Source: an uncultured Clostridia bacterium (GTDB taxonomy: Bacteria; Aerophobota; Aerophobia; Aerophobales; B3-G15). Taken from it: DNA of 41,287 bases. How positions within the stretch are numbered: position 1 is the stretch's first letter; each line of letters opens with the position of its first letter. Below the pieces are notes generated by a model. The model was given only the letters and a program-made list of their open reading frames with translations. It had not been told where the DNA came from and searched no databases. Of the stretch, positions 1,665 through 35,471 are shown one piece after another. The position numbers and the translations under genes are program-made. The DNA lies in NCBI GenBank assembly GCA_964482715.1, contig CAYZYX010000012.1, positions 1 to 41,287 on the forward strand, read 5' to 3'.

Positions 1665-1699
1665 GAATAACCGGGAACAGGCTTTTATCCTGTTCCCGG
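1665..1699 (-). terminator. Probable intrinsic terminator after chemoreceptor gene
   Basis: Perfect 11-bp stem CCGGGAACAGG/CCTGTTCCCGG (1671-1681/1689-1699), 7-nt loop, followed on minus strand by TTATTC. Confidence 0.65.
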
Positions 1700-1744
1700 C
1701 ATATAGAGGGGTAAATGGGGAATCTCAATTTGAATTTCTGGACT

Positions 1745-3727
1745 TTACAGATTCTGAAGCTCATCAGCCAGGGCAGCAACCTCTTCTATTGCTGTGGCAA
1801 GTTCATTTATTCCCTTAGCCTGCTGCTGTGTTGAGGCTGCAGCTTCTTGAGCTGAAGTCGCCAGTTGTTCTATTTCGGATACCATCTGGTCTATACTTTT
1901 TTCTGTTTCCTGAGCTTCCTGAATCTGTCCCTCTGCTATCTTACCTAAATTAGTAGCTACTTCTCTCACCTCAGCCATGCCTTTATCAATGTTACCAAAA
2001 GCTTCCCTTATTTTCCCTCCATGTTTTGACTCTTCCATCACATTGTTGTTATTTTCTTCAATAATCTGAGAAACCTGGGCAATTCTTTCCTGAAAATCCC
2101 GGACAACATCTTTAATTTTATCTGCTGACTGAGAAGATTGATTAGCCAGTTCTCTTATATCGCCGGCTACAACAGCAAACCCTTTGCCATACTCCCCTGC
2201 TCTTGCCGCCTCAATTGCGCCATTTAAGGCCAGAAGGTTGGTTTGAACATTTAAGTTGGTGATTACATCAACTATTTTATCTATTCTTCTACTTTCCTCC
2301 TGCAGCTCTTCTATATCTTTCAAGGCTCCTTTTATTATCTCAACTGTCTGGTCAATTCCCCGGGTAATCTCCAGAACATCCTGAATAGCCTGTTTTTCCA
2401 GTTCCGCCAGTTTGTCCACAGATTTCTGCAGTTCCTTCACATTCTGGTTTAAAAACTCTGCTTTTTCTCTGACATCCTTTGTTCCCTTCCTCATTTGCTG
2501 ACTGGATGCCGATTGTTCTTCGGTGGAGCTTGCAAACTCCTCTATGGTGGAAGCAGCCTGCTGGGAGGCGCTGTTTGTCTGTTGAAGGGTGGCGGAAAGT
2601 TCCTCAGCTGTAGCGGCAAGCTCTTCGGCAGTCTTTTCACTCCCCGCACCACTTCTTATATCCTCAGCCCTGGTGGTAAGATCATCAGCTGTGGAGGAGA
2701 TTTCCTGGATGGATTTTGCTATCTGACGCATGGTTGAGGCTATCTCTTCAGCATTGGATGCTTGCTGTTCCACGGCGGAGGCTATCTGATTGCAACCGGA
2801 TACCACCTCTCCTGCAGCTTTTCCACCCTCCTCCTGGAATTTCCTTATATTTTCCATGTTTTGAGCAATGTCTTCGGTATGGCCAACTGTAGGGGCTACT
2901 GCATCACGGGCTTTTTCGCTTTTTTCAACCAGCTCTTGACCCTGCCTCGCCGCCTCCTGCACTTCCTTCACCACATTTTCCACTCCATTTTGGATTCTCT
3001 GGACAAGTTCCTGAATTTCTTTAGCCGAGTTTTCAGCCTGCTCGGCAAGATTTCTAACCTCATCGGCCACCACGGCAAATCCCCGGCCGTGCTCCCCTGC
3101 TCTTGCCGCCTCAATTGCAGCATTAAGAGCGAGAAGATTGGTCTGGTCGGCTATACCCAGGACTGTTTGGACAACATTTCTGATTTCTTCAGCTTGTTTT
3201 TGCAATGCGGAGGTATCTTCGGCCGATTTAGCATTCTGATTAGCAACAACTCTAACTCCTTCAATGAAAGAATCGGTTTCTCTGGCTGTATCGGTAATCA
3301 TTTGCTGAATTCCGGCAATTTTTTCTGCAGCCTCATTTACAACCCTGACACCTTCTCTTGCTGCTTTTTCCACACCCTGAACCACTTTTAGAATCTCGGC
3401 TGCTCTTTGGCCAACTTCCTGGGTTGTCTGAGCTGTATCCTCCACAACTTTGAGAGTCTCATTTCCTGTCTTTGCCGCTTCCTCTGTACCTGAGGCTATC
3501 TCGGCAATTGATGCTGCAAGTCTTTCTGCTATCTGCTGCCTCTTGGCGGAGGTTCGTTTCATCCTGACATCGTCCAGAGATTTCCTGGTTAATCTTTGAC
3601 CGGGGGCCGAAGCCGCTTTTTCTGCTAAAGCCGAATCACTCCTTGTTTCTCTTTTTTCCCTTTTTTCACCTTCTGGAAGTGGAGCAAGTTTTTTAGGGAC
3701 ACCGTTTTTTAATTTCATGTCAGCCAT
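1745..3727 (-). CDS. Cytoplasmic methyl-accepting chemotaxis protein with two signalling domains
   Basis: Two hairpin-tip motifs ([31 protein letters not shown] and [31 protein letters not shown]); no hydrophobic TM segment. Confidence 0.92.
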
Positions 3728-3780
3728 TTTTACACCCCTTACACCTTTTTTTGAAAATAAGATTCCTCCTTGTTTCAGGA

Positions 3781-3809
3781 TTGATTTTTTCTTTCTTCTT
3801 TCATATAAT
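3781..3809 (+). promoter_or_regulatory. Sigma70-type promoter for the DUF1670-like gene
   Basis: TTGATT-N17-TATAAT. Confidence 0.6.
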
Positions 3810-3829
3810 ACCTTAGTTAAATAGTAGGA

Positions 3830-3849
3830 TATGTGGCTTCTGCCACATA
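3830..3849. repeat. Palindrome copy 1, TATGTGG-N6-CCACATA
   Basis: TATGTGG CTTCTG CCACATA; same arms as 4717-4736. Confidence 0.9.
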
Positions 3850-3907
3850 CTATGGTAAAAAGGAATTTTTTGTCGATTTGTTTCTAATAGAAACCCAGAG
3901 GCAAAAA

Positions 3908-4726
3908 ATGAACATAAAATGGAGCAGCAGGTTCAAAGATAGAAGTGTTGGACTCCTGACCCACTATTTTCAGACCCGCTACAGATTCTCTCCCGCTCTC
4001 GCCGAAGCTCTATCAGCTGATTTTTTGAGACTATTCCGGCTTTTTAACCCTGATCGTCTGGAAGAAGGACAGGTTATCTATCATGTCGTAGCCAGAAAGG
4101 AACCATCCGGAAAATCCTTAAAAGACTGTGAGTTTGTCCCCGTCAGGCTTACCCTCTATCATCCGGAAGATTCAGAGTTCAAAAAGAAAAATGGCCTTAA
4201 GAAACTCAAACTCAGGATAATTAAGCGAATTACCCGGGAGGCGGTCCAGCAGGGAGGCTCACTGAGTCAGGAGGATATAGCAGAGCTCCTTTTTCTGGAT
4301 CGAAGAACAGTGGTGGAATATATCAAGGAAATTGAAGCTGAAGGAGAAAAAGTAATTACCCGGGCTAAACTTTCTCTCCTGTTTTTCCATCAGAGTCCCA
4401 AATTCAAAATAATCAAAATGTTTCTTAATGGATATAACGGTGCTGAGATTGCCTCTTCCTGTGGTTATCCGGAAACCTATATAGCCTCACATATAGACAG
4501 TTTTTTGAGGGTAAGTCTTTTCTATCGCCGGGGATTTGCACCTTTTCAAATTGCCCAGTCTACAGGAATTGAATTAAACTCGGTGAATAAACATATTGAA
4601 AATTATAACAGGGTGATGGCAGACGAAAAGCTCTCCCAACCTGCCAGGAAGATCTTTTCCTTCTACGAAGGACCAGAGGTAGTAGCCCTTCTAAAATCAA
4701 AGAACAATTTTTATGGTATGTGGTGA
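3908..4726 (+). CDS. DUF1670-like HTH-containing protein
   Basis: GQVIY...VPVRLTL...RITREAVQQGGSLSQEDIAELLFLDRRTV resembles DUF1670 proteins as recalled; HTH-like segments; ATG 3908 behind GAGG preferred to GTG 3833. Confidence 0.7.
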   Translation: MNIKWSSRFKDRSVGLLTHYFQTRYRFSPALAEALSADFLRLFRLFNPDRLEEGQVIYHVVARKEPSGKSLKDCEFVPVRLTLYHPEDSEFKKKNGLKKLKLRIIKRITREAVQQGGSLSQEDIAELLFLDRRTVVEYIKEIEAEGEKVITRAKLSLLFFHQSPKFKIIKMFLNGYNGAEIASSCGYPETYIASHIDSFLRVSLFYRRGFAPFQIAQSTGIELNSVNKHIENYNRVMADEKLSQPARKIFSFYEGPEVVALLKSKNNFYGMW

Positions 4727-4736
4727 TTACCACATA
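4717..4736. repeat. Palindrome copy 2, TATGTGG-N6-CCACATA
   Basis: TATGTGG TGATTA CCACATA; the gene's TGA stop (4724-4726) lies in the spacer. Confidence 0.9.
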
Positions 4737-4738
4737 AT

Positions 4739-4765
4739 TTATCGGTAAAAAATAGAAAAACTTTA
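4739..4765 (-). promoter_or_regulatory. Sigma28 (FliA)-type promoter
   Basis: Minus strand TAAA-N15-ACCGATAA versus consensus TAAA-N15-GCCGATAA. Confidence 0.72.
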
Positions 4766-4814
4766 ATAAGGGGTGAGCAGCGCAGATAAAAATAAGGCTG
4801 GAAAATCCAATTTC

Positions 4815-5933
4815 TTAAAAAGATGGGATATATCGCAGGTGAGAAGATGGAATGTTTAGTTTTTCCCTGTACCTGGTAACAGTGCGTCTTGCAATTTTTA
4901 TCTGATAATCTCTTCTGATTTTCTCTTTAATTTCTTCATCAGTTAAGGGACATAAGAGAAGGCCTTTTTCCATCATCTCTTTCTCCTCCAGAATGACCTT
5001 TTTGACCAGATTTTTCATCCAGCGGCGGGAAAAGAAAAACTTAATTGGCCTTTCCTCTCCCCGGGGAGTGAGAATACTTTTTCCCGCGATGGCACGACTT
5101 ATCGTGCTGGGACTAACACCAAGACTTCGGGCAAGCTCACTTTGACTGAATGGTAAAAGATCAATTAATCTTCCTGATATAAAATAGGGACGTTGAATCT
5201 CTTTAAGCTGGTGCAGTATTCTATAGATGGTGGTAACTCGCCGATTAATCATGTCAAGCTGTCTCAAAAATTCTGTGATTTTGTTTACCTCAGTTCGGGA
5301 AATTTTCTTTTCTTCTACCAGCTTTTCAAGTCTTTGATAGTCAATGTGATACCTGCCCTTAATAAGATAACTTTCTTCCTTGAGTGGACGGATAACAAGA
5401 TTACCCTTTTCCCATTCAAAAGATGCAATGAGAAAATACCCTGAAGATGTGGGAAAAGGTGCCGGAAAAGAATTATTCAGGAGCTGCTGCAACTGAAATC
5501 TGTCTATAAAATCCTTGAAAATGCTAATCTCGCTTGAAGAAAATTCACCTAATCTTGAGATTTCCTTAATCCCCATCTCTCCGGAAAGGACCCTGCGGAA
5601 ATTATCCTCACCTATTTTTCCCCCTATTCTTTTTAAAAGGTTTAAAATGTTATCCGATAATAACTCTTCAACCTCAAGCCCGCCTTTCTCCGGTAGAATT
5701 TCCTCCTTCAACTGGAGTCTTTTATGGTCTCTAACGTCGTAAAATTTCCTGAAAGTTATGATTCTGTATCTTTCCTTTAGCAGGAAAAATAAGGGGTCTT
5801 TCTCCATCTTTTCAATGTAAAGTTCAAAATCTGGTTCGGGCAGGGATAAAAATTCTGCTACTTTAATTTTTCCGATTAATTTCATCTGGAGCTTTTGGTC
5901 GGGTTTTTGTATCAGTTTAATCTTTTGAGTCAT
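4815..5933 (-). CDS. rpoN: Short, divergent sigma54 (RpoN) family factor
   Basis: Region I-like N-terminus (QKLQMK...LSLPEPDF...DPLF), HTH (SELARSLGVSPSTISRAIAGKSILTPRG...KFFF), RpoN-box variant ARRTVTRYRE. Confidence 0.85.
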   Translation of the reverse strand: MTQKIKLIQKPDQKLQMKLIGKIKVAEFLSLPEPDFELYIEKMEKDPLFFLLKERYRIITFRKFYDVRDHKRLQLKEEILPEKGGLEVEELLSDNILNLLKRIGGKIGEDNFRRVLSGEMGIKEISRLGEFSSSEISIFKDFIDRFQLQQLLNNSFPAPFPTSSGYFLIASFEWEKGNLVIRPLKEESYLIKGRYHIDYQRLEKLVEEKKISRTEVNKITEFLRQLDMINRRVTTIYRILHQLKEIQRPYFISGRLIDLLPFSQSELARSLGVSPSTISRAIAGKSILTPRGEERPIKFFFSRRWMKNLVKKVILEEKEMMEKGLLLCPLTDEEIKEKIRRDYQIKIARRTVTRYREKLNIPSSHLRYIPSF

Positions 5934-5948
5934 CTTAACCCTCCTTTT

Positions 5949-6209
5949 TTAAATTCTCACATCAATGAACTTACCTTTCCCATTAGGAAAATCCCCCGAT
6001 GATTTTTTCTTTTTCGCCTCATCCTCTTTTTTTTCATCTTCTAAAGAGATCTTTCTTTTTCTTTTTTCCTTTTTTAAAGAGGAATCTTTTTCCTGTTTTA
6101 AGTACCGGGAAAAACTTTTCCTGTCTGTCTGGGAATTTCTCTTAAAGAGTTTATTTATTTTTTGAGGAACCTGTGTTCTGGTAATCTCTCTTATATGATT
6201 TAACCTCAC
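5949..6209 (-). CDS. Small Lys/Glu-rich hypothetical protein with C-terminal KGKFIDVRI
   Basis: Fills the gap between fliA and rpoN in operon orientation, AGGTG RBS, GTG start. Confidence 0.7.
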   Translation of the reverse strand: MRLNHIREITRTQVPQKINKLFKRNSQTDRKSFSRYLKQEKDSSLKKEKRKRKISLEDEKKEDEAKKKKSSGDFPNGKGKFIDVRI

Positions 6210-6225
6210 TTTTTATCACCTGCCT

Positions 6226-6939
6226 TTAAATAGACAGATTTTTCCTTAATTTATTAAGAACACTTTTTAGCTTCAGGATAACCCTTCCATGTATCTGACA
6301 GACTCTTGATTCGGAAACACCCAGAAGCTGTCCTATTTCTTTAAAAGTTAGCTCTTCATAGTAGTAGAGAATGATGACCATTCTCTCCCTCGGGGACAAA
6401 TTCTCCAGTGCTCTTCTGAGTATTTCCTTCAATTCTTCTTTTTCCAGCACATCCAGTGGATTCTCAGCCTCCACAGAAGCAACTTTTTCCCGGAAACTCT
6501 TTTTTTTCTCATCGGTCTGTTCCAGAGATACCCAGGAAAAATGGTTTACCTGGGTGTAGAGTTTATAAAGATCGCCCTCACTGATGTTTAACTCTTCAGC
6601 AATTTCCTTATCGGTGGGAGTTCTACCTAATTTTCTCTCCAGTGATATAAACGTTTCTTCAAGAATGTCAGCTTTTTTACGCAGGGATCGGGGAACCCAG
6701 TCCAGACGTCGCAGCTCATCCATGATGGCCCCTTTTATTCGGGTAAGGGCGTAAGTCTTGAACTTAACACCCCGGGAAGGATCAAAACTCTCCATAGCTT
6801 TCAAAAGACCAATCACACCACTACTTATGAGGTCTTCCCGTGAGACCTGAGGCAAAAAGCTAACCGGGAGTCTATCCACAACGTACTTAACCAGGGGCAA
6901 ATACCTTATTACCAGCTTTTCTTTCTCATTTTTCATCAC
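6226..6939 (-). CDS. fliA: Flagellar sigma factor sigma28
   Basis: DLISSGVIGL, RIKGAIMDELRRLDWVPRS, GVSESRVCQIH. Confidence 0.96.
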   Translation of the reverse strand: MMKNEKEKLVIRYLPLVKYVVDRLPVSFLPQVSREDLISSGVIGLLKAMESFDPSRGVKFKTYALTRIKGAIMDELRRLDWVPRSLRKKADILEETFISLERKLGRTPTDKEIAEELNISEGDLYKLYTQVNHFSWVSLEQTDEKKKSFREKVASVEAENPLDVLEKEELKEILRRALENLSPRERMVIILYYYEELTFKEIGQLLGVSESRVCQIHGRVILKLKSVLNKLRKNLSI

Positions 6940-6966: not shown

Positions 6967-9006
6967 TTATAACTGTACAACACCTATGTTTTTAATCTTA
7001 ACTTCAGGAACTATCTCGTTAAAGGACAAAACCACCAGAGAAGGGATGAATCTTTCCACAATTCTCTTAAAGAATATCCTTATTCCAGGTGAACAAATAA
7101 CTATGGGCTCTTGCTGAAGGGAAAGTGCCTTTTTCACCAGGGGTGTCAACTTATCAATCATCTTCTGGATGATTGAAGGCTCAAGATGGATATAAGAACT
7201 CTTTTCCTTATGTTCTATAGAGCGTGATATCTCGTCTTCCAGTCGAGAATCAAGAGTTATCGCCCATATTTCGCCCTTATCATTTTTATACTGTTTACTG
7301 ATTAAACGAGCCAGACTCTGTCTGACATACTCGGTTAGAATATCTATATTCTTAGTCTGGGTTGCCCAGTCGGCAAGTGTTTCAAGAATGGTGAGCAGAT
7401 CCCTTATGGAAACTCTCTCTCGAAGAAGATTCTGAAGAACTTTCTGCACATCTCCCAGACTTAAAAGACCGGGAACAAGTTCCTCCACGACAGCCGGATA
7501 GTCCTGTCGCAGGTTGTCCAGAAGATTTTTTACTTCCTGCCTTCCCAGAAGTTCATGAGCATGAGATTTAATGACCTCTGTAAGATGGGTGATGAGAACC
7601 GACGAGGCACTTACAACTGTGTATCCTGCCCTTTCTGCTCTCTCCCGTTCTTCCTCCTTAATCCATATTGCCGGCATACCAAAAGCTGGATCTTTGGTCT
7701 TTATTCCTTCAAGAGGCCTTTCCACCATTCCGGTATCCATGGCCAGGTAATGCCTTACCATAATTTCCCCTCCGGCAACCTCCATTCCTCTTATCTTTAT
7801 GCGATAACGATTTGGTTCAAGTTGAATGTTATCTCTTACTCTTATGGGTGGAACAACTATCCCCAACTCCAGTGCTACCTGGTGACGTATCATGGTGATT
7901 CTCTCAAGAACATCTCCTCCCTGTGAGCTGTCCACCAGGGGAATAAGTCCGTAGCCAATTTCAACTTCCAGAGGATCAATGCGAAGAAGTTCCTCCACCG
8001 GTTCTTTTTTTTCAGAAGGAGCTTCCGGTAACTTTTTCTCTTCATGAAGTCTTTCTCTCTCCCCTCTGTTTACCATATAATAAAGTCCGGCCACCACAAA
8101 GGCCAGCAGAAAAAGGGGAATTTTGGGAAGGCCGGGCAAAAGAGCAAAGAGAAAAAGTAAAAAGGCGACAATAGCAATGGCTTTTGGTTGACTTAAAATC
8201 TGTCTGGTAAAATCAAGTGCAAGGTGAGATTCAGAGGAACTGCGGGTAATTATAATCCCGGCAGCTGTAGAAACTATCAAAGCCGGAATTTGAGACACCA
8301 TACCATCTCCCACAGTAAGTAAGGTATAGGTGCGAAGTGCCTGTTCAGGTGACATATGGTGCTGCAAAATTCCAATTGCCAGTCCTCCTATTATGTTGAC
8401 CAGGAGAATTATGATAGCAGCAATGGCATCTCCCCTGACAAATTTACTTGCTCCATCCATGGCTCCGTAAAAATCAGCCTGTCTTTCTATTTCAAAGCGT
8501 CTTTTTCTTGCCTCTTCCTCGGTAATAAGGCCAGCGTTAAGGTCGGCGTCAATGCTCATCTGTTTTCCGGGCATGGAGTCAAGTGTAAAACGAGCCGCAA
8601 CTTCAGAAACACGGGTTGCACCTCTGGTGATCACGATAAAGTTAATCACCACAAGTATTAGAAAGATTATAACTCCCACTACATAGTTTCCTCCCACCAC
8701 GAAGTAACCAAAAGCCTGAATCACTTTACCAGCATAACCATGGAGGAGAATCAACCTTGTTGAGGCCACATTGAGACTCAGGCGAAAAAGTGTTATCAAA
8801 AGAAGCAGGGAAGGGAATACCGAAAAATCCAGGGGTCTTTTCACATAAACGGTCAGAAGAAATATCATAAAGGTAGCCGCAAGATTCAAACTGAGTAAAA
8901 CATCAAGAACAACAGGAGGAAGCGGTATGACAAGAAGGACAACTATCCCCACAGCTACAAGAGAAAAACCTATATCGCTTCGTCTTGTTAACGATCCCGG
9001 GTTCAT
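6967..9006 (-). CDS. flhA: Flagellar export gate protein FlhA
   Basis: RVSEVAARFTLDSMPGKQMSIDADL, FYGAMDGASKFVRGDA. Confidence 0.98.
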   Translation of the reverse strand: MNPGSLTRRSDIGFSLVAVGIVVLLVIPLPPVVLDVLLSLNLAATFMIFLLTVYVKRPLDFSVFPSLLLLITLFRLSLNVASTRLILLHGYAGKVIQAFGYFVVGGNYVVGVIIFLILVVINFIVITRGATRVSEVAARFTLDSMPGKQMSIDADLNAGLITEEEARKRRFEIERQADFYGAMDGASKFVRGDAIAAIIILLVNIIGGLAIGILQHHMSPEQALRTYTLLTVGDGMVSQIPALIVSTAAGIIITRSSSESHLALDFTRQILSQPKAIAIVAFLLFLFALLPGLPKIPLFLLAFVVAGLYYMVNRGERERLHEEKKLPEAPSEKKEPVEELLRIDPLEVEIGYGLIPLVDSSQGGDVLERITMIRHQVALELGIVVPPIRVRDNIQLEPNRYRIKIRGMEVAGGEIMVRHYLAMDTGMVERPLEGIKTKDPAFGMPAIWIKEEERERAERAGYTVVSASSVLITHLTEVIKSHAHELLGRQEVKNLLDNLRQDYPAVVEELVPGLLSLGDVQKVLQNLLRERVSIRDLLTILETLADWATQTKNIDILTEYVRQSLARLISKQYKNDKGEIWAITLDSRLEDEISRSIEHKEKSSYIHLEPSIIQKMIDKLTPLVKKALSLQQEPIVICSPGIRIFFKRIVERFIPSLVVLSFNEIVPEVKIKNIGVVQL

Positions 9007-35255: not shown

Positions 35256-35471
35256 ATTTTGATTTCTCCAATTTTGGGAAAAACACCTGTTAGACAGCCC
35301 GGGTGCGTATACCTTGCTTTAGAGGAAAGGTGATTCCCTTCCCTTCATGTGCTCAGGAAATACACCTTTCCTTTTGGTGTTATAAGTTTTATCTTTGTTA
35401 TAAGACTTTTTCCCGAATCTGGAAAAGCTTTACCTTGTCAAGAATTGAATTTTTTTCTACAATTAAAGGTA

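Follow-up and report, generated by a model that had tools for sequence, protein, structure and literature searches.

The window (the whole stretch of DNA that was analysed, 41,287 nucleotides) contains a solitary plus-strand gene of the DUF1670 family with the same palindrome at both of its ends, which raises the question of whether the gene encodes a regulator that binds these two sites or belongs to an element that inserts, excises or inverts. Both possibilities were put forward by a first-pass annotation made from the sequence alone. Its observation of no other plus-strand gene across some 35 kb matches the orf list: if plus-strand orfs nested within longer minus-strand ones are set aside, the next one begins at 35349. 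The features of the locus are as follows.

1745-3727, minus strand: gene for a methyl-accepting chemotaxis protein (MCP) of 660 aa (Pfam MCPsignal, E 8.3e-77), beyond the left dyad
3781-3809, plus strand: sigma-70-like promoter candidate, TTGATT-17-TATAAT (consensus scan, 10/12 matches)
3830-3849, no strand: dyad 1 (left end), TATGTGG-N6-CCACATA, exact, 102 nt from the MCP start codon
3847-3876, minus strand: weak sigma-70-like candidate facing the MCP gene (consensus scan, 9/12), its -10 overlapping the right arm of dyad 1
3865-3909, plus strand: inverted repeat in the DUF1670 leader (pair I2, 22 nt, 77%), which pairs the ribosome-binding region
3908-4726, plus strand: DUF1670 gene, 272 aa (PF07900, 119.6 bits)
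4717-4736, no strand: dyad 2 (right end), TATGTGG-N6-CCACATA, exact, including the DUF1670 stop codon
4739-4765, minus strand: FliA (sigma-28)-type promoter, TAAAG-N15-ACCGATAA, antisense into DUF1670 and towards the MCP gene
4815-5933, minus strand: gene for a protein of 372 aa with only the DNA-binding domain of sigma-54 (Sigma54_DBD, E 4.7e-25), beyond the promoter
6226-6939, minus strand: FliA/WhiG sigma factor gene (TIGR02479, 262.6 bits, cut-off 189.6)

The exact 20-bp dyad was confirmed at both ends of the gene, the TGA stop codon (4724-4726) falling in the spacer of dyad 2 as had been noticed, and the arms extend inward as an imperfect inverted repeat (3830-3853 and 4713-4736, 24 nt, 71% complementary). 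A search of the window that allowed two mismatches matched these two copies only, compared to 0.07 expected, and none of 100 shuffled sequences reached two. In the genome to which the window belongs (G000; 1,565,059 bases, 54 contigs), the dyad is found with up to one mismatch at these two positions only, a count that is not significant by itself because a reversed control pattern also gives two. The exact pattern ATGTGG-N6-CCACAT has two sites in this genome and the exact pattern TGTGGT-N4-ACCACA has one, with none for either control. In 31 genomes of the order, the latter pattern has nine exact sites (controls none), seven of which are at the DUF1670 locus and two within long orfs.

The family suspected from the sequence was identified by Pfam as DUF1670 (PF07900) with 119.6 bits against a cut-off of 25 (E 1.7e-34), in an alignment that spans profile positions 2-218 of 220 and agrees with a search of the whole genome. 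The gene likely starts at ATG 3908, which GAGG precedes, in place of the GTG at 3833 given in the mechanical orf list. Several HTH families match the 272-aa protein as well, more weakly than DUF1670, and a wide VIA-align comparison of its AF2 model (pLDDT 78.9) returned HTH domains only, with Z of at most 7.0 and residues 50-95 barely tested. The domain layout consists of an N-terminal alpha/beta part, a winged HTH (residues 96-158 approximately) and a TrpR/DnaA-IV-like HTH part (171-256 approximately). Residues E65, D88 and R107 are conserved throughout the family. Foldseek against the PDB gave no rows at E <= 0.001, NCBIfam has no family that matches the protein, neither Pfam nor NCBIfam matched a DDE/RNase H, HUH or serine/tyrosine recombinase domain in it, and tblastn at 1e-5 found no match in plasmid and phage collections. 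A literature search found no publication naming DUF1670 or PF07900, in keeping with the earlier statement that no function is established for the family. Purifying selection evidently acts on the gene: dN/dS is 0.07-0.23 in nine of ten informative orthologue pairs (0.67 in one near-identical pair), and the 19 strain variants listed inside the gene comprise 15 synonymous and four nonsynonymous changes.

The unit occupies the same kind of place in nine relatives belonging to four families. Single-gene DUF1670 orthologues with 44-57% identity and the same neighbours are present in G001, G002, G004, G005, G007, G009, G013 and G015, and the orthologous copy of G008 has an internal deletion and has lost the C-terminal HTH part. 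The neighbour past dyad 1 is an MCP in seven genomes and a response regulator with two REC domains in two; MCP orthologues with 71-85% identity adjoin the DUF1670 gene in G001, G004, G007, G009 and G013, with a partial one in G015. No relative was found to have an empty site, in which the promoter would directly precede this MCP gene: orthologous MCPs were found only beside a DUF1670 unit, the sigma-54 DNA-binding-domain gene of G011 is in another context, in G003 the contig runs out at this gene, and a query with the gene has no match in G006. Because the search yielded no empty site, we infer the insertion event from paralogues and from the phylogenetic tree.

When the flanks of homologues were scanned for the dyad, the same dyad type was found at both ends of two-gene DUF1670 units (40-43% identity) in unrelated contexts, and a different dyad was found at both ends in a more distant DUF1670 clade. 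Between the units L051 and L052 the homology (88.8%) is bounded on both sides by the dyads, beyond which there are 4-bp direct repeats, and the dyads of the window share homology with the termini of L051, L052 and L053. One Acidobacteriota MAG contains four copies of the unit with 96.7-99.9% identity over 1.74-1.92 kb and unrelated flanks, one Methanosarcinales MAG contains two copies with 99% identity, and G014 has 13 matches. Copies with 94-95% identity are also found in Halanaerobium records. In the tree, the A and B genes of these units are split with support of 99/98, and the clade of the window is nested in the gene-A clade as the sister (100/99) of the A genes of units with the same dyad. 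The two-gene units, for which a literature search found no insertion-sequence-like description in print, evidently behave as mobile DNA.

The unit of the window has in common with them the protein family, the dyad type at both ends and a right dyad that touches the last stop codon, and like L051 it is placed in the leader just upstream of another gene; both kinds of unit are without a recognisable catalytic domain. It differs from them in consisting of an A-type gene alone with no overlapping B paralogue, in being single-copy (a PF07900 search of the whole G000 genome found one DUF1670 gene), syntenic across families and vertically kept, and in having no target duplication, the sequences outside the dyads (AGGA and TTAT) leaving no direct repeat. 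The unit does look to be of mobile ancestry. Of the two suggestions, the one of an inserting, excising or inverting element is upheld for the ancestry, since the homology of the relatives ends at the dyads, but not for the present single-copy, syntenic and selected unit, which is not a recent or active insertion. It would be very improbable for a cassette in G000 to be still mobile, excisable or invertible, as the twin dyads at both ends and the multi-copy state of the related two-gene units might suggest, because each genome has a single copy, which the same neighbours flank in the nine relatives, gene B is absent, the flanking direct repeat is gone, and no recombinase or transposase domain was recognised in the gene or its neighbours. 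Junctions indicative of excision or inversion were sought in the contigs of four other sequencing runs, from which rare forms could have been dropped, and no such joint was found; one of these contigs (3626-5237) spans both dyads in the arrangement of the window. The G+C content of the unit (42.4%, compared to 39.9% for the genome) is similar to that of its neighbours.

FliA-dependent promoters have the consensus TAAA, about 15 nt, and GCCGATAA, which the minus-strand sequence TAAAG-N15-ACCGATAA resembles, and the genome has a FliA gene about 1.5 kb away. The flagellin gene of this genome has a like promoter 94 nt upstream, of which the first 12 bases are identical, and a strain variant (4746 T>C) turns the promoter of the window into the consensus GCCGATA. 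The promoter type is credible, as FliA is encoded nearby and flagellin and paralogous MCPs have like sites; the FliA encoded at 6226-6939 should read this promoter, which is 1,012 nt from the MCP gene (1745-3727), the presumed target of the proposed switch. Dyad 2 begins 2 nt past the -10 of this opposing promoter and, as the first-pass annotation anticipated, lies on the expected start region, as it does in all 11 distinct orthologous loci. A loose genome-wide sigma-28 pattern was discarded as evidence: it is not specific, with 16 matches against 19 in a reversed control.

The sigma-70-like promoter ascribed to the DUF1670 gene itself, just before dyad 1, is present as a candidate (3781-3809), but the call is weak because the region has six sigma-70-like sites compared to 3.0 +/- 1.7 in shuffled sequences, and the site is not clearly kept in orthologues. 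For the downstream chemotaxis gene, the distance from dyad 1 to the start codon is about 30 nt in G001 and G004 and 14 nt in G002, too short to accommodate a separate promoter. Paralogous MCPs (G013, G004) and an orthologue of the response regulator (G000) have FliA-type promoters 55-150 nt upstream with nothing between. A sigma-28-type sense promoter after dyad 1 was considered and dropped, the block TTGACA-N14-GCCGAT being clear in only three of nine loci.

The FliA-type promoter abuts the right dyad and points antisense through the gene in all 11 distinct orthologous loci, even where the neighbours change, and this constant convergent layout is what one would expect if the sigma-28 promoter merely silenced DUF1670 by convergent antisense transcription in the manner of an excludon. 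The chemotaxis gene would then be driven by an outward promoter inside the left end, for which the weak minus-strand site that overlaps dyad 1 (3876-3847) is a candidate, and the dyads would be promoter-proximal elements rather than operators of this protein. However, that site is not above chance by the same comparison with shuffled sequences and is not conserved, and such interference leaves unexplained why dyad type matches protein clade in contexts that have no such promoter. Transcriptional interference alone is a rather unlikely explanation of the locus.

The sequences CCGATA, of the promoter, and TGTGGT, the core of dyad 2, are invariant in all 11 distinct loci while the surrounding sequence varies, and the distance between CCGATA and dyad 2 is 4-5 nt in five loci and 11-16 nt in six. 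Coding constraint was ruled out as the cause of the conservation of dyad 2, because the C-terminus of the protein is not conserved and so does not hold the dyad in place. The counterpart of dyad 1 in the eight other orthologous loci is imperfect (ATGTGGT-N4-ACCnC), and its centre varies in other samples of the window's own locus (3836, 3837, 3840, 3842), with constant outer arms. The arm of dyad 2 farther from the promoter is degenerate in G005 and G007, where the protein is intact. The spacing of the dyads is 887-973 bp without constant helical phase, and the loop of about 890 bp of DNA suggested earlier therefore receives no support. Imperfection, strain variation, degeneracy and inconstant phase might all be seen if the dyads were decaying terminal repeats without present function, the protein being either kept by the host for targets elsewhere or a selfish remnant, and the sigma-28 promoter reading through. 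Against such decay, the TGTGGT of dyad 2 has remained invariant although dS between orthologues is saturated (2.7-5.0), no variant of dyad 2 was found in the contigs of the four other runs, and the genome offers no other candidate site for the protein at up to one mismatch. That the dyads are functionless relics is therefore considered improbable.

A role for the dyads in RNA rather than DNA was also evaluated. Both fold as minus-strand RNA hairpins of 8-9 bp (-9.2 and -13.0 kcal/mol; z -3.1 and -4.5) and might act as such in a long sigma-28 leader, dyad 2 as a 5′ stabilising stem-loop and dyad 1 as an attenuating or processed hairpin just ahead of the ribosome-binding site, with the DUF1670 protein either unneeded or RNA-binding. 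Consistent with this, G008 has a perfect palindrome at dyad 2 beside an intact promoter despite its truncated protein, so that dyad 2 may have a role for which the DUF1670 protein is not needed; the outer four base pairs show some two-sided changes (two pairs, three cells); and the best Foldseek rows, although weak (E 0.07-0.09), are SelB winged-helix domains bound to an RNA hairpin. Dyad 1 was flagged as terminator-like, on the minus strand only and with a poor tail; dyad 2 was not flagged on either strand in the search for intrinsic terminators (a G+C-rich stem with a U-run), and neither hairpin is followed by a U-run in the orthologues. Sigma-28 transcripts usually start 7-8 nt after the -10, and so the RNA would miss most of the first arm of dyad 2 in the five loci where the dyad is 4-5 nt after CCGATA. 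The 6-bp core is invariant in sequence rather than covarying, three pairs never vary, the covariation score was reached by 33 of 500 shuffles, no Rfam family matches, and the two-gene relatives have the same flanking dyads with no sigma-28 promoter to transcribe them. An RNA-level element is accordingly regarded as a minor possibility.

The comparative data favour binding of both dyads by the protein, because dyad type tracks protein clade and occurs beside homologues in unrelated contexts, and because in all 11 distinct orthologous loci the dyad lies over the expected start region of a FliA-type promoter that is itself conserved. About an even chance of being the correct explanation is given to an immobilised element whose protein, bound at both ends, gates transcription from the sigma-28 promoter into the chemotaxis gene beyond. 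Counting against it are the perfect dyad 2 beside the truncated protein of G008, the degenerate arm of dyad 2 in G005 and G007, the imperfect and variable dyad 1, and the weakness of the promoter candidates for the DUF1670 gene itself. The region 3830-4736 would descend from a two-gene DUF1670 mobile unit that lost gene B, became immobilised long ago and retained both terminal dyads, and it would lie in the leader between the FliA promoter (4765-4739, minus strand) and the MCP gene (3727-1745). We infer DNA binding, the transcription start, read-through to the MCP gene and the sign of the regulation: to reach the MCP gene, sigma-28 transcription would enter at dyad 2, cross the DUF1670 gene antisense and exit past dyad 1, and the multi-HTH protein would bind its two ancestral end sequences. 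Binding to dyad 2, at the expected transcription start, would block or tune the sigma-28 promoter; binding to dyad 1, next to the candidate promoter region of the DUF1670 gene, would regulate both the expression of the protein itself and the exit of read-through transcription before the MCP gene. Convergent sense and antisense transcription would add mutual exclusion, and the unit as a whole would gate or toggle a single chemotaxis gene that depends on sigma-28.

A more ambitious version of this proposal is tentative and somewhat more probably wrong than right: an undescribed, DUF1670-only family of insertion sequences might have been captured in its entirety by an ancestor that several Aerophobota families share, and the end-binding protein with both termini might have become a 'promoter gate', fused to a FliA promoter, that acts by operator occlusion and sense/antisense exclusion on whichever chemotaxis gene follows, MCP or response regulator, and is possibly a bistable switch for chemosensory heterogeneity.

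Three further kinds of known system invite comparison. RAYT/REP systems are domesticated single-copy transposases associated with palindromic REP sequences (PMC5581495, PMC3337134), and resemble the locus in combining a transposase-derived gene in a single, vertically inherited copy with palindromes that it presumably recognises. RAYTs belong to the HUH/Y1 enzymes and have numerous dispersed REP copies, whereas the DUF1670 protein of the window is HTH-only and its two flanking dyads are alone in the genome. In the mogR excludon of Listeria, a long 5′ UTR from a SigB promoter is antisense to flagellar genes (PMC7154746). In both loci a promoter for an alternative sigma factor lies far upstream of a gene related to motility, with a leader antisense to a divergently oriented gene, so that one RNA would serve as mRNA and antisense RNA, as is predicted in the window from its sequence; the promoter and the geometry of an excludon are present. 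The RNAs of Listeria have been mapped and the overlapped genes are structural, whereas the geometry of the locus in the window is read from sequence, the gene that is overlapped would be a regulator descended from mobile DNA, and the overlap has a palindrome at each end. With an ordinary HTH autoregulator the locus shares HTH domains and a palindrome of 16-20 bp with an AT-rich 4-nt centre near promoters; unlike one, it has a site at either end of the gene, with about 0.9 kb between them. One of the two is on the expected start of an alternative-sigma promoter that faces the gene, and both share homology with the ends of mobile relatives.

The two-gene DUF1670 units look mobile though they have no recognisable DNA-cutting enzyme, and the locus of the window presents a relative that is fixed, single-copy and maintained by selection. 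It has no more than two candidate binding sites, and expression of one chemoreceptor from a FliA promoter is a ready measure of its effect. The action of DUF1670 on the dyads is therefore directly testable. If the gating proposal is true, the locus would clearly exemplify, in bacteria, the domestication of a mobile element as a regulatory cassette within the flagellar/chemotaxis regulon. The locus also has what may be a long antisense leader, in a phylum that has been little studied.

A membership of the Methanosarcina Msr regulators in DUF1670 was not supported: two Methanosarcina-like genomes with three MtaB genes each have no PF07900 match, G161 has none within 8 kb of mtaB, and a literature search found no family assignment for the Msr regulators. 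The collection was scanned for relatives with the narrower alignment A5, the broad alignment A4 being too diverse, and the scan with A5 did not reach Methanosarcina acetivorans. The NCBIfam rpoN models match only the last third of the 372-aa protein encoded beyond the promoter, with scores below the cut-offs. The inverted repeat in the DUF1670 leader (3865-3909) is predicted to fold as RNA with -13.4 kcal/mol (z -2.7).

The 20-bp dyad TATGTGG-N6-CCACATA occurs exactly at 3830-3849 (dyad 1) and 4717-4736 (dyad 2), flanking a DUF1670-like gene as the first-pass annotation had described, and its statement that the window holds no further copy is borne out: these are the only matches at ≤2 mismatches (0.07 expected; two reached in 0 of 100 shuffles). 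The window's own 1.56-Mb assembly (G000) contains no third copy at ≤1 mismatch. At that looseness a reversed control pattern likewise gave two sites, and what counts is therefore how exact the dyads are and where they lie rather than their number; control patterns have no exact match in G000. The single plus-strand gene between the dyads encodes 272 amino acids, with a probable ATG start at 3908 preceded by GAGG and a TGA stop that falls within the spacer of dyad 2. Its product belongs to Pfam DUF1670 (PF07900; 119.6 bits, cut-off 25) and matches HTH families more weakly. The genes and the promoter around this unit (3830-4736) are as follows.

1745-3727, minus strand: methyl-accepting chemotaxis protein (MCP), by profile search
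4765-4739, minus strand: sigma-28-type promoter TAAAG-N15-ACCGATAA, its -10 ending 2 nt from dyad 2
4815-5933, minus strand: protein with a sigma-54 DNA-binding domain alone, 372 aa, by profile search
5949-6209, minus strand: small orf, 86 aa, between fliA and the sigma-54-domain gene
6226-6939, minus strand: FliA (sigma-28; TIGR02479, 262.6 bits)
6967-9006, minus strand: FlhA, by profile search

The MCP has an unusual architecture: three stretches match the MCP signalling domain, and one at the C-terminus is DUF948-like. The gene at 4815-5933 is the last of the fliA operon and has 52-58% identity in five relatives; its sigma-54 match is confined to the C-terminal DNA-binding domain (rpoN models match the last third only, below cut-off), and the protein is without an activator-interacting or core-binding region. 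The 86-aa orf has 37-45% identity in three relatives and matches no Pfam or NCBIfam family.

PF07900 matches were found in 19 of the 41 genomes searched, including G000, and single-gene orthologues of 44-57% identity in nine relatives (G001, G002, G004, G005, G007, G008, G009, G013 and G015; that of G005 is cut by a contig end). An orthologous MCP lies past the 5′ side of the unit in G001, G004, G007, G009 and G013, and partially in G015, while the sigma-54-domain gene lies past the 3′ side in G001, G002, G004, G005 and G007. Contigs from four other sequencing runs (X2-X5) keep the arrangement of the window, one of them (3626-5237) covering both dyads, and no excision or inversion joint at the unit was found in them. 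The shared neighbours and the contigs without a joint speak, for this copy, against the earlier suggestion that the unit is an element that inserts, excises or inverts, and the empty site proposed as a check was not found among the relatives examined. The unit is resident rather than a recent insertion. Its G+C content (42.4%) is close to that of the genome (39.9%) and of neighbouring genes (38-46%). Nine of the ten differing orthologue pairs have dN/dS of 0.07-0.23 and one near-identical pair 0.67 (two further pairs are identical), and among 19 strain variants that the X2-X5 contigs are listed as having within the gene, 15 are synonymous.

The more distant DUF1670 genes examined are all overlapping pairs, gene A followed by gene B. 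At three metagenome loci (L051-L053), gene A is 40-43% identical to the window's protein, with TTGTGGT-N4-ACCACAT ahead of it and a related dyad behind gene B. L051 and L052 are 88.8% alike precisely from dyad to dyad and unrelated outside, with 4-bp direct repeats (ACAA; GTGA) when the ends are set one base off the blast limits; at L053, three of four bases repeat. Units of a second clade (G003, G014, G017, G022 and G028) are ~1.95 kb long and carry at either end, inverted, another type of dyad (GGGGACA...TGTCCC); G014 has 13 DUF1670 matches, many on short contigs. The four copies in one Acidobacteriota MAG have unrelated flanks and are 96.7-99.9% identical over 1.74-1.92 kb, the two in one Methanosarcinales MAG are 99% identical, and four Halanaerobium records have 1.74 kb in common (94-95% identity); the family is found in bacteria and archaea. 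A maximum-likelihood tree built from 40 proteins separates A from B genes with support of 99/98 and places the window's clade of 15 rows as sister (100/99) to gene A of the same-dyad units; the branch of the window's protein itself is long (0.63). Given this tree and the two-gene relatives, the simplest history is loss of gene B, and of mobility, from a two-gene unit, and a mobile two-gene ancestry is considered likely.

Two-gene units are multi-copy, frequently on short contigs, and occur across bacterial and archaeal phyla (L054-L066, from G014, G027, G017, G003, G021, G022 and G028, and L083-L123), and DUF1670 proteins of Aerophobetes and Methanothrix records are up to 58% identical. At L057 (contig C18 of G014, 1690-5001), gene A is interrupted by ~3.3 kb of other DNA. 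Units of the Acidobacteriota MAG (L100, L102, L103 and L116) are set among G+C-rich palindromic GCCCCGAAGGGGC-type repeats, REP-like in look.

The promoter at 4765-4739 was judged against the sigma-28 consensus. Eleven distinct 3′ flanks (the window, nine genomes and locus L050) were compared, drawn from 17 de-duplicated rows by leaving out the two-gene paralogues L051-L053 and the near-duplicates L044, L045 and L048. CCGATA and TGTGGT are invariant in the alignment and TAAAG almost so; with a strict regular expression the promoter is recovered in all but one of 14 orthologue rows (13), the exception, G002, being one base off in the -35, and a run variant (4746 T>C) converts ACCGATA to GCCGATA. 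The gap from CCGATA to dyad 2 is 4, 4, 5, 5 and 5 nt or 11, 12, 12, 12, 13 and 16 nt. If sigma-28 transcription starts 7-8 nt after its -10, the start is predicted within or just ahead of dyad 2 at every locus, and in the short gap class (4-5 nt) the RNA could not hold the full first arm. Pair counts at dyad 2 give an invariant 6-bp core with little covariation (score reached by 33 of 500 shuffles), and dyad 2 is not maintained by coding, since the protein's C-terminus is not conserved. No dyad 2 variant is among the differences listed for X2-X5. A dyad 1 homologue is present at all eight other loci examined, a perfect palindrome in the window only. Its centre varies among strains (3836, 3837, 3840 and 3842), including a C>T paired with a G>A at the innermost pair, and its outer arms are constant among the differences listed. 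The four centre changes occur in X2, X4 and X5; X3 is identical to the window there.

The next gene in the direction of the promoter is the MCP, 1,012 nt off; without 3830-4736 the leader would be ~105 nt. The flagellin gene of G000 has TAAAGTTTTTCT...GCCGATA 94 nt upstream, its first 12 bases identical to those at 4765, and among the four paralogous MCP genes with sufficient upstream sequence, two are preceded at 55-150 nt by such a promoter and a third has a near match. In G001 and G004 the start codon of the MCP is only ~30 nt from dyad 1, and therefore MCP transcription must come from inside or across the unit. Past dyad 1 in G002 (14 nt away) and G008 is an orthologous 2xREC response regulator, not an MCP (the G002 and G008 regulators are 58% identical). 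The regulator's G000 orthologue (48% identity; contig C14, 17188-16331, minus strand) lies elsewhere, without any DUF1670 unit; a separate sigma-28-type promoter stands 58 nt ahead of it with nothing between, and the flagellin gene with the similar promoter is on the same contig, at ~8208. What stays constant across the genomes compared is thus the promoter, followed by dyad 2, the DUF1670 gene in antisense to that promoter, and dyad 1; the gene that comes next differs between genomes, yet is of chemotaxis type each time.

The best-supported reading of these sequence patterns, with chances that we consider about even, is that the DUF1670 protein binds both dyads and gates FliA transcription into the chemotaxis gene. 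The protein would bind the two end sequences of its ancestral unit. Dyad 2, where FliA transcription is expected to start, falls within the span covered by RNA polymerase, and protein bound at that dyad should repress this transcription or tune it. The FliA transcript would run antisense through the DUF1670 gene into the chemotaxis gene, passing at its exit toward the MCP dyad 1, beside the gene's own putative promoter region, and convergent transcription would add mutual exclusion. Binding to the dyads is probable and the proposed regulatory outcome on the chemotaxis gene has about even odds, the ancestry being firmer than both. Counted against gating are G008, where dyad 2 is perfect though the protein is without its C-terminal HTH part, the degenerate distal arm of dyad 2 in G005 and G007, the imperfect dyad 1 outside the window, and the lack of an empty site.

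The unit is proposed to hold a domesticated mobile-element protein of the DUF1670 family that now regulates locally, in combination with a long antisense leader. Its closest counterparts are the two-gene DUF1670 units, the RAYT/REP domesticated transposases (PMC5581495, PMC3337134) and the long antisense leader of Listeria mogR (PMC7154746). A literature search for DUF1670 or PF07900 found no paper naming either, nor the two-gene units in print. The idea that the Methanosarcina Msr regulators are DUF1670 proteins failed its test, as two mtaB-rich genomes have no PF07900 match.

The AF2 model of the 272-aa protein (pLDDT 78.9, pTM 0.44) starts with a helical hairpin at the N-terminus, followed by a beta-hairpin region and by HTH units made of helices. 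Foldseek gave no match to it at E ≤ 0.001; VIA-align matched TrpR-like domains (Z 7.0, residues 189-256) and the NiaR winged helix (Z 6.3, residues 96-158), scores in the range that the tool calls common, with no nuclease-like fold among its matches. Residues conserved family-wide include G54, E65, G68, K69, D88 and R107.

In the DUF1670 leader, a 22-nt inverted repeat (3865-3909, plus strand) places the region of ribosome binding in a paired stem (-13.4 kcal/mol, z -2.7); anti-SD pairing with the SD in the G009 leader is less clear than in the window. The repeat may serve translational control, of a kind known for transposase genes.
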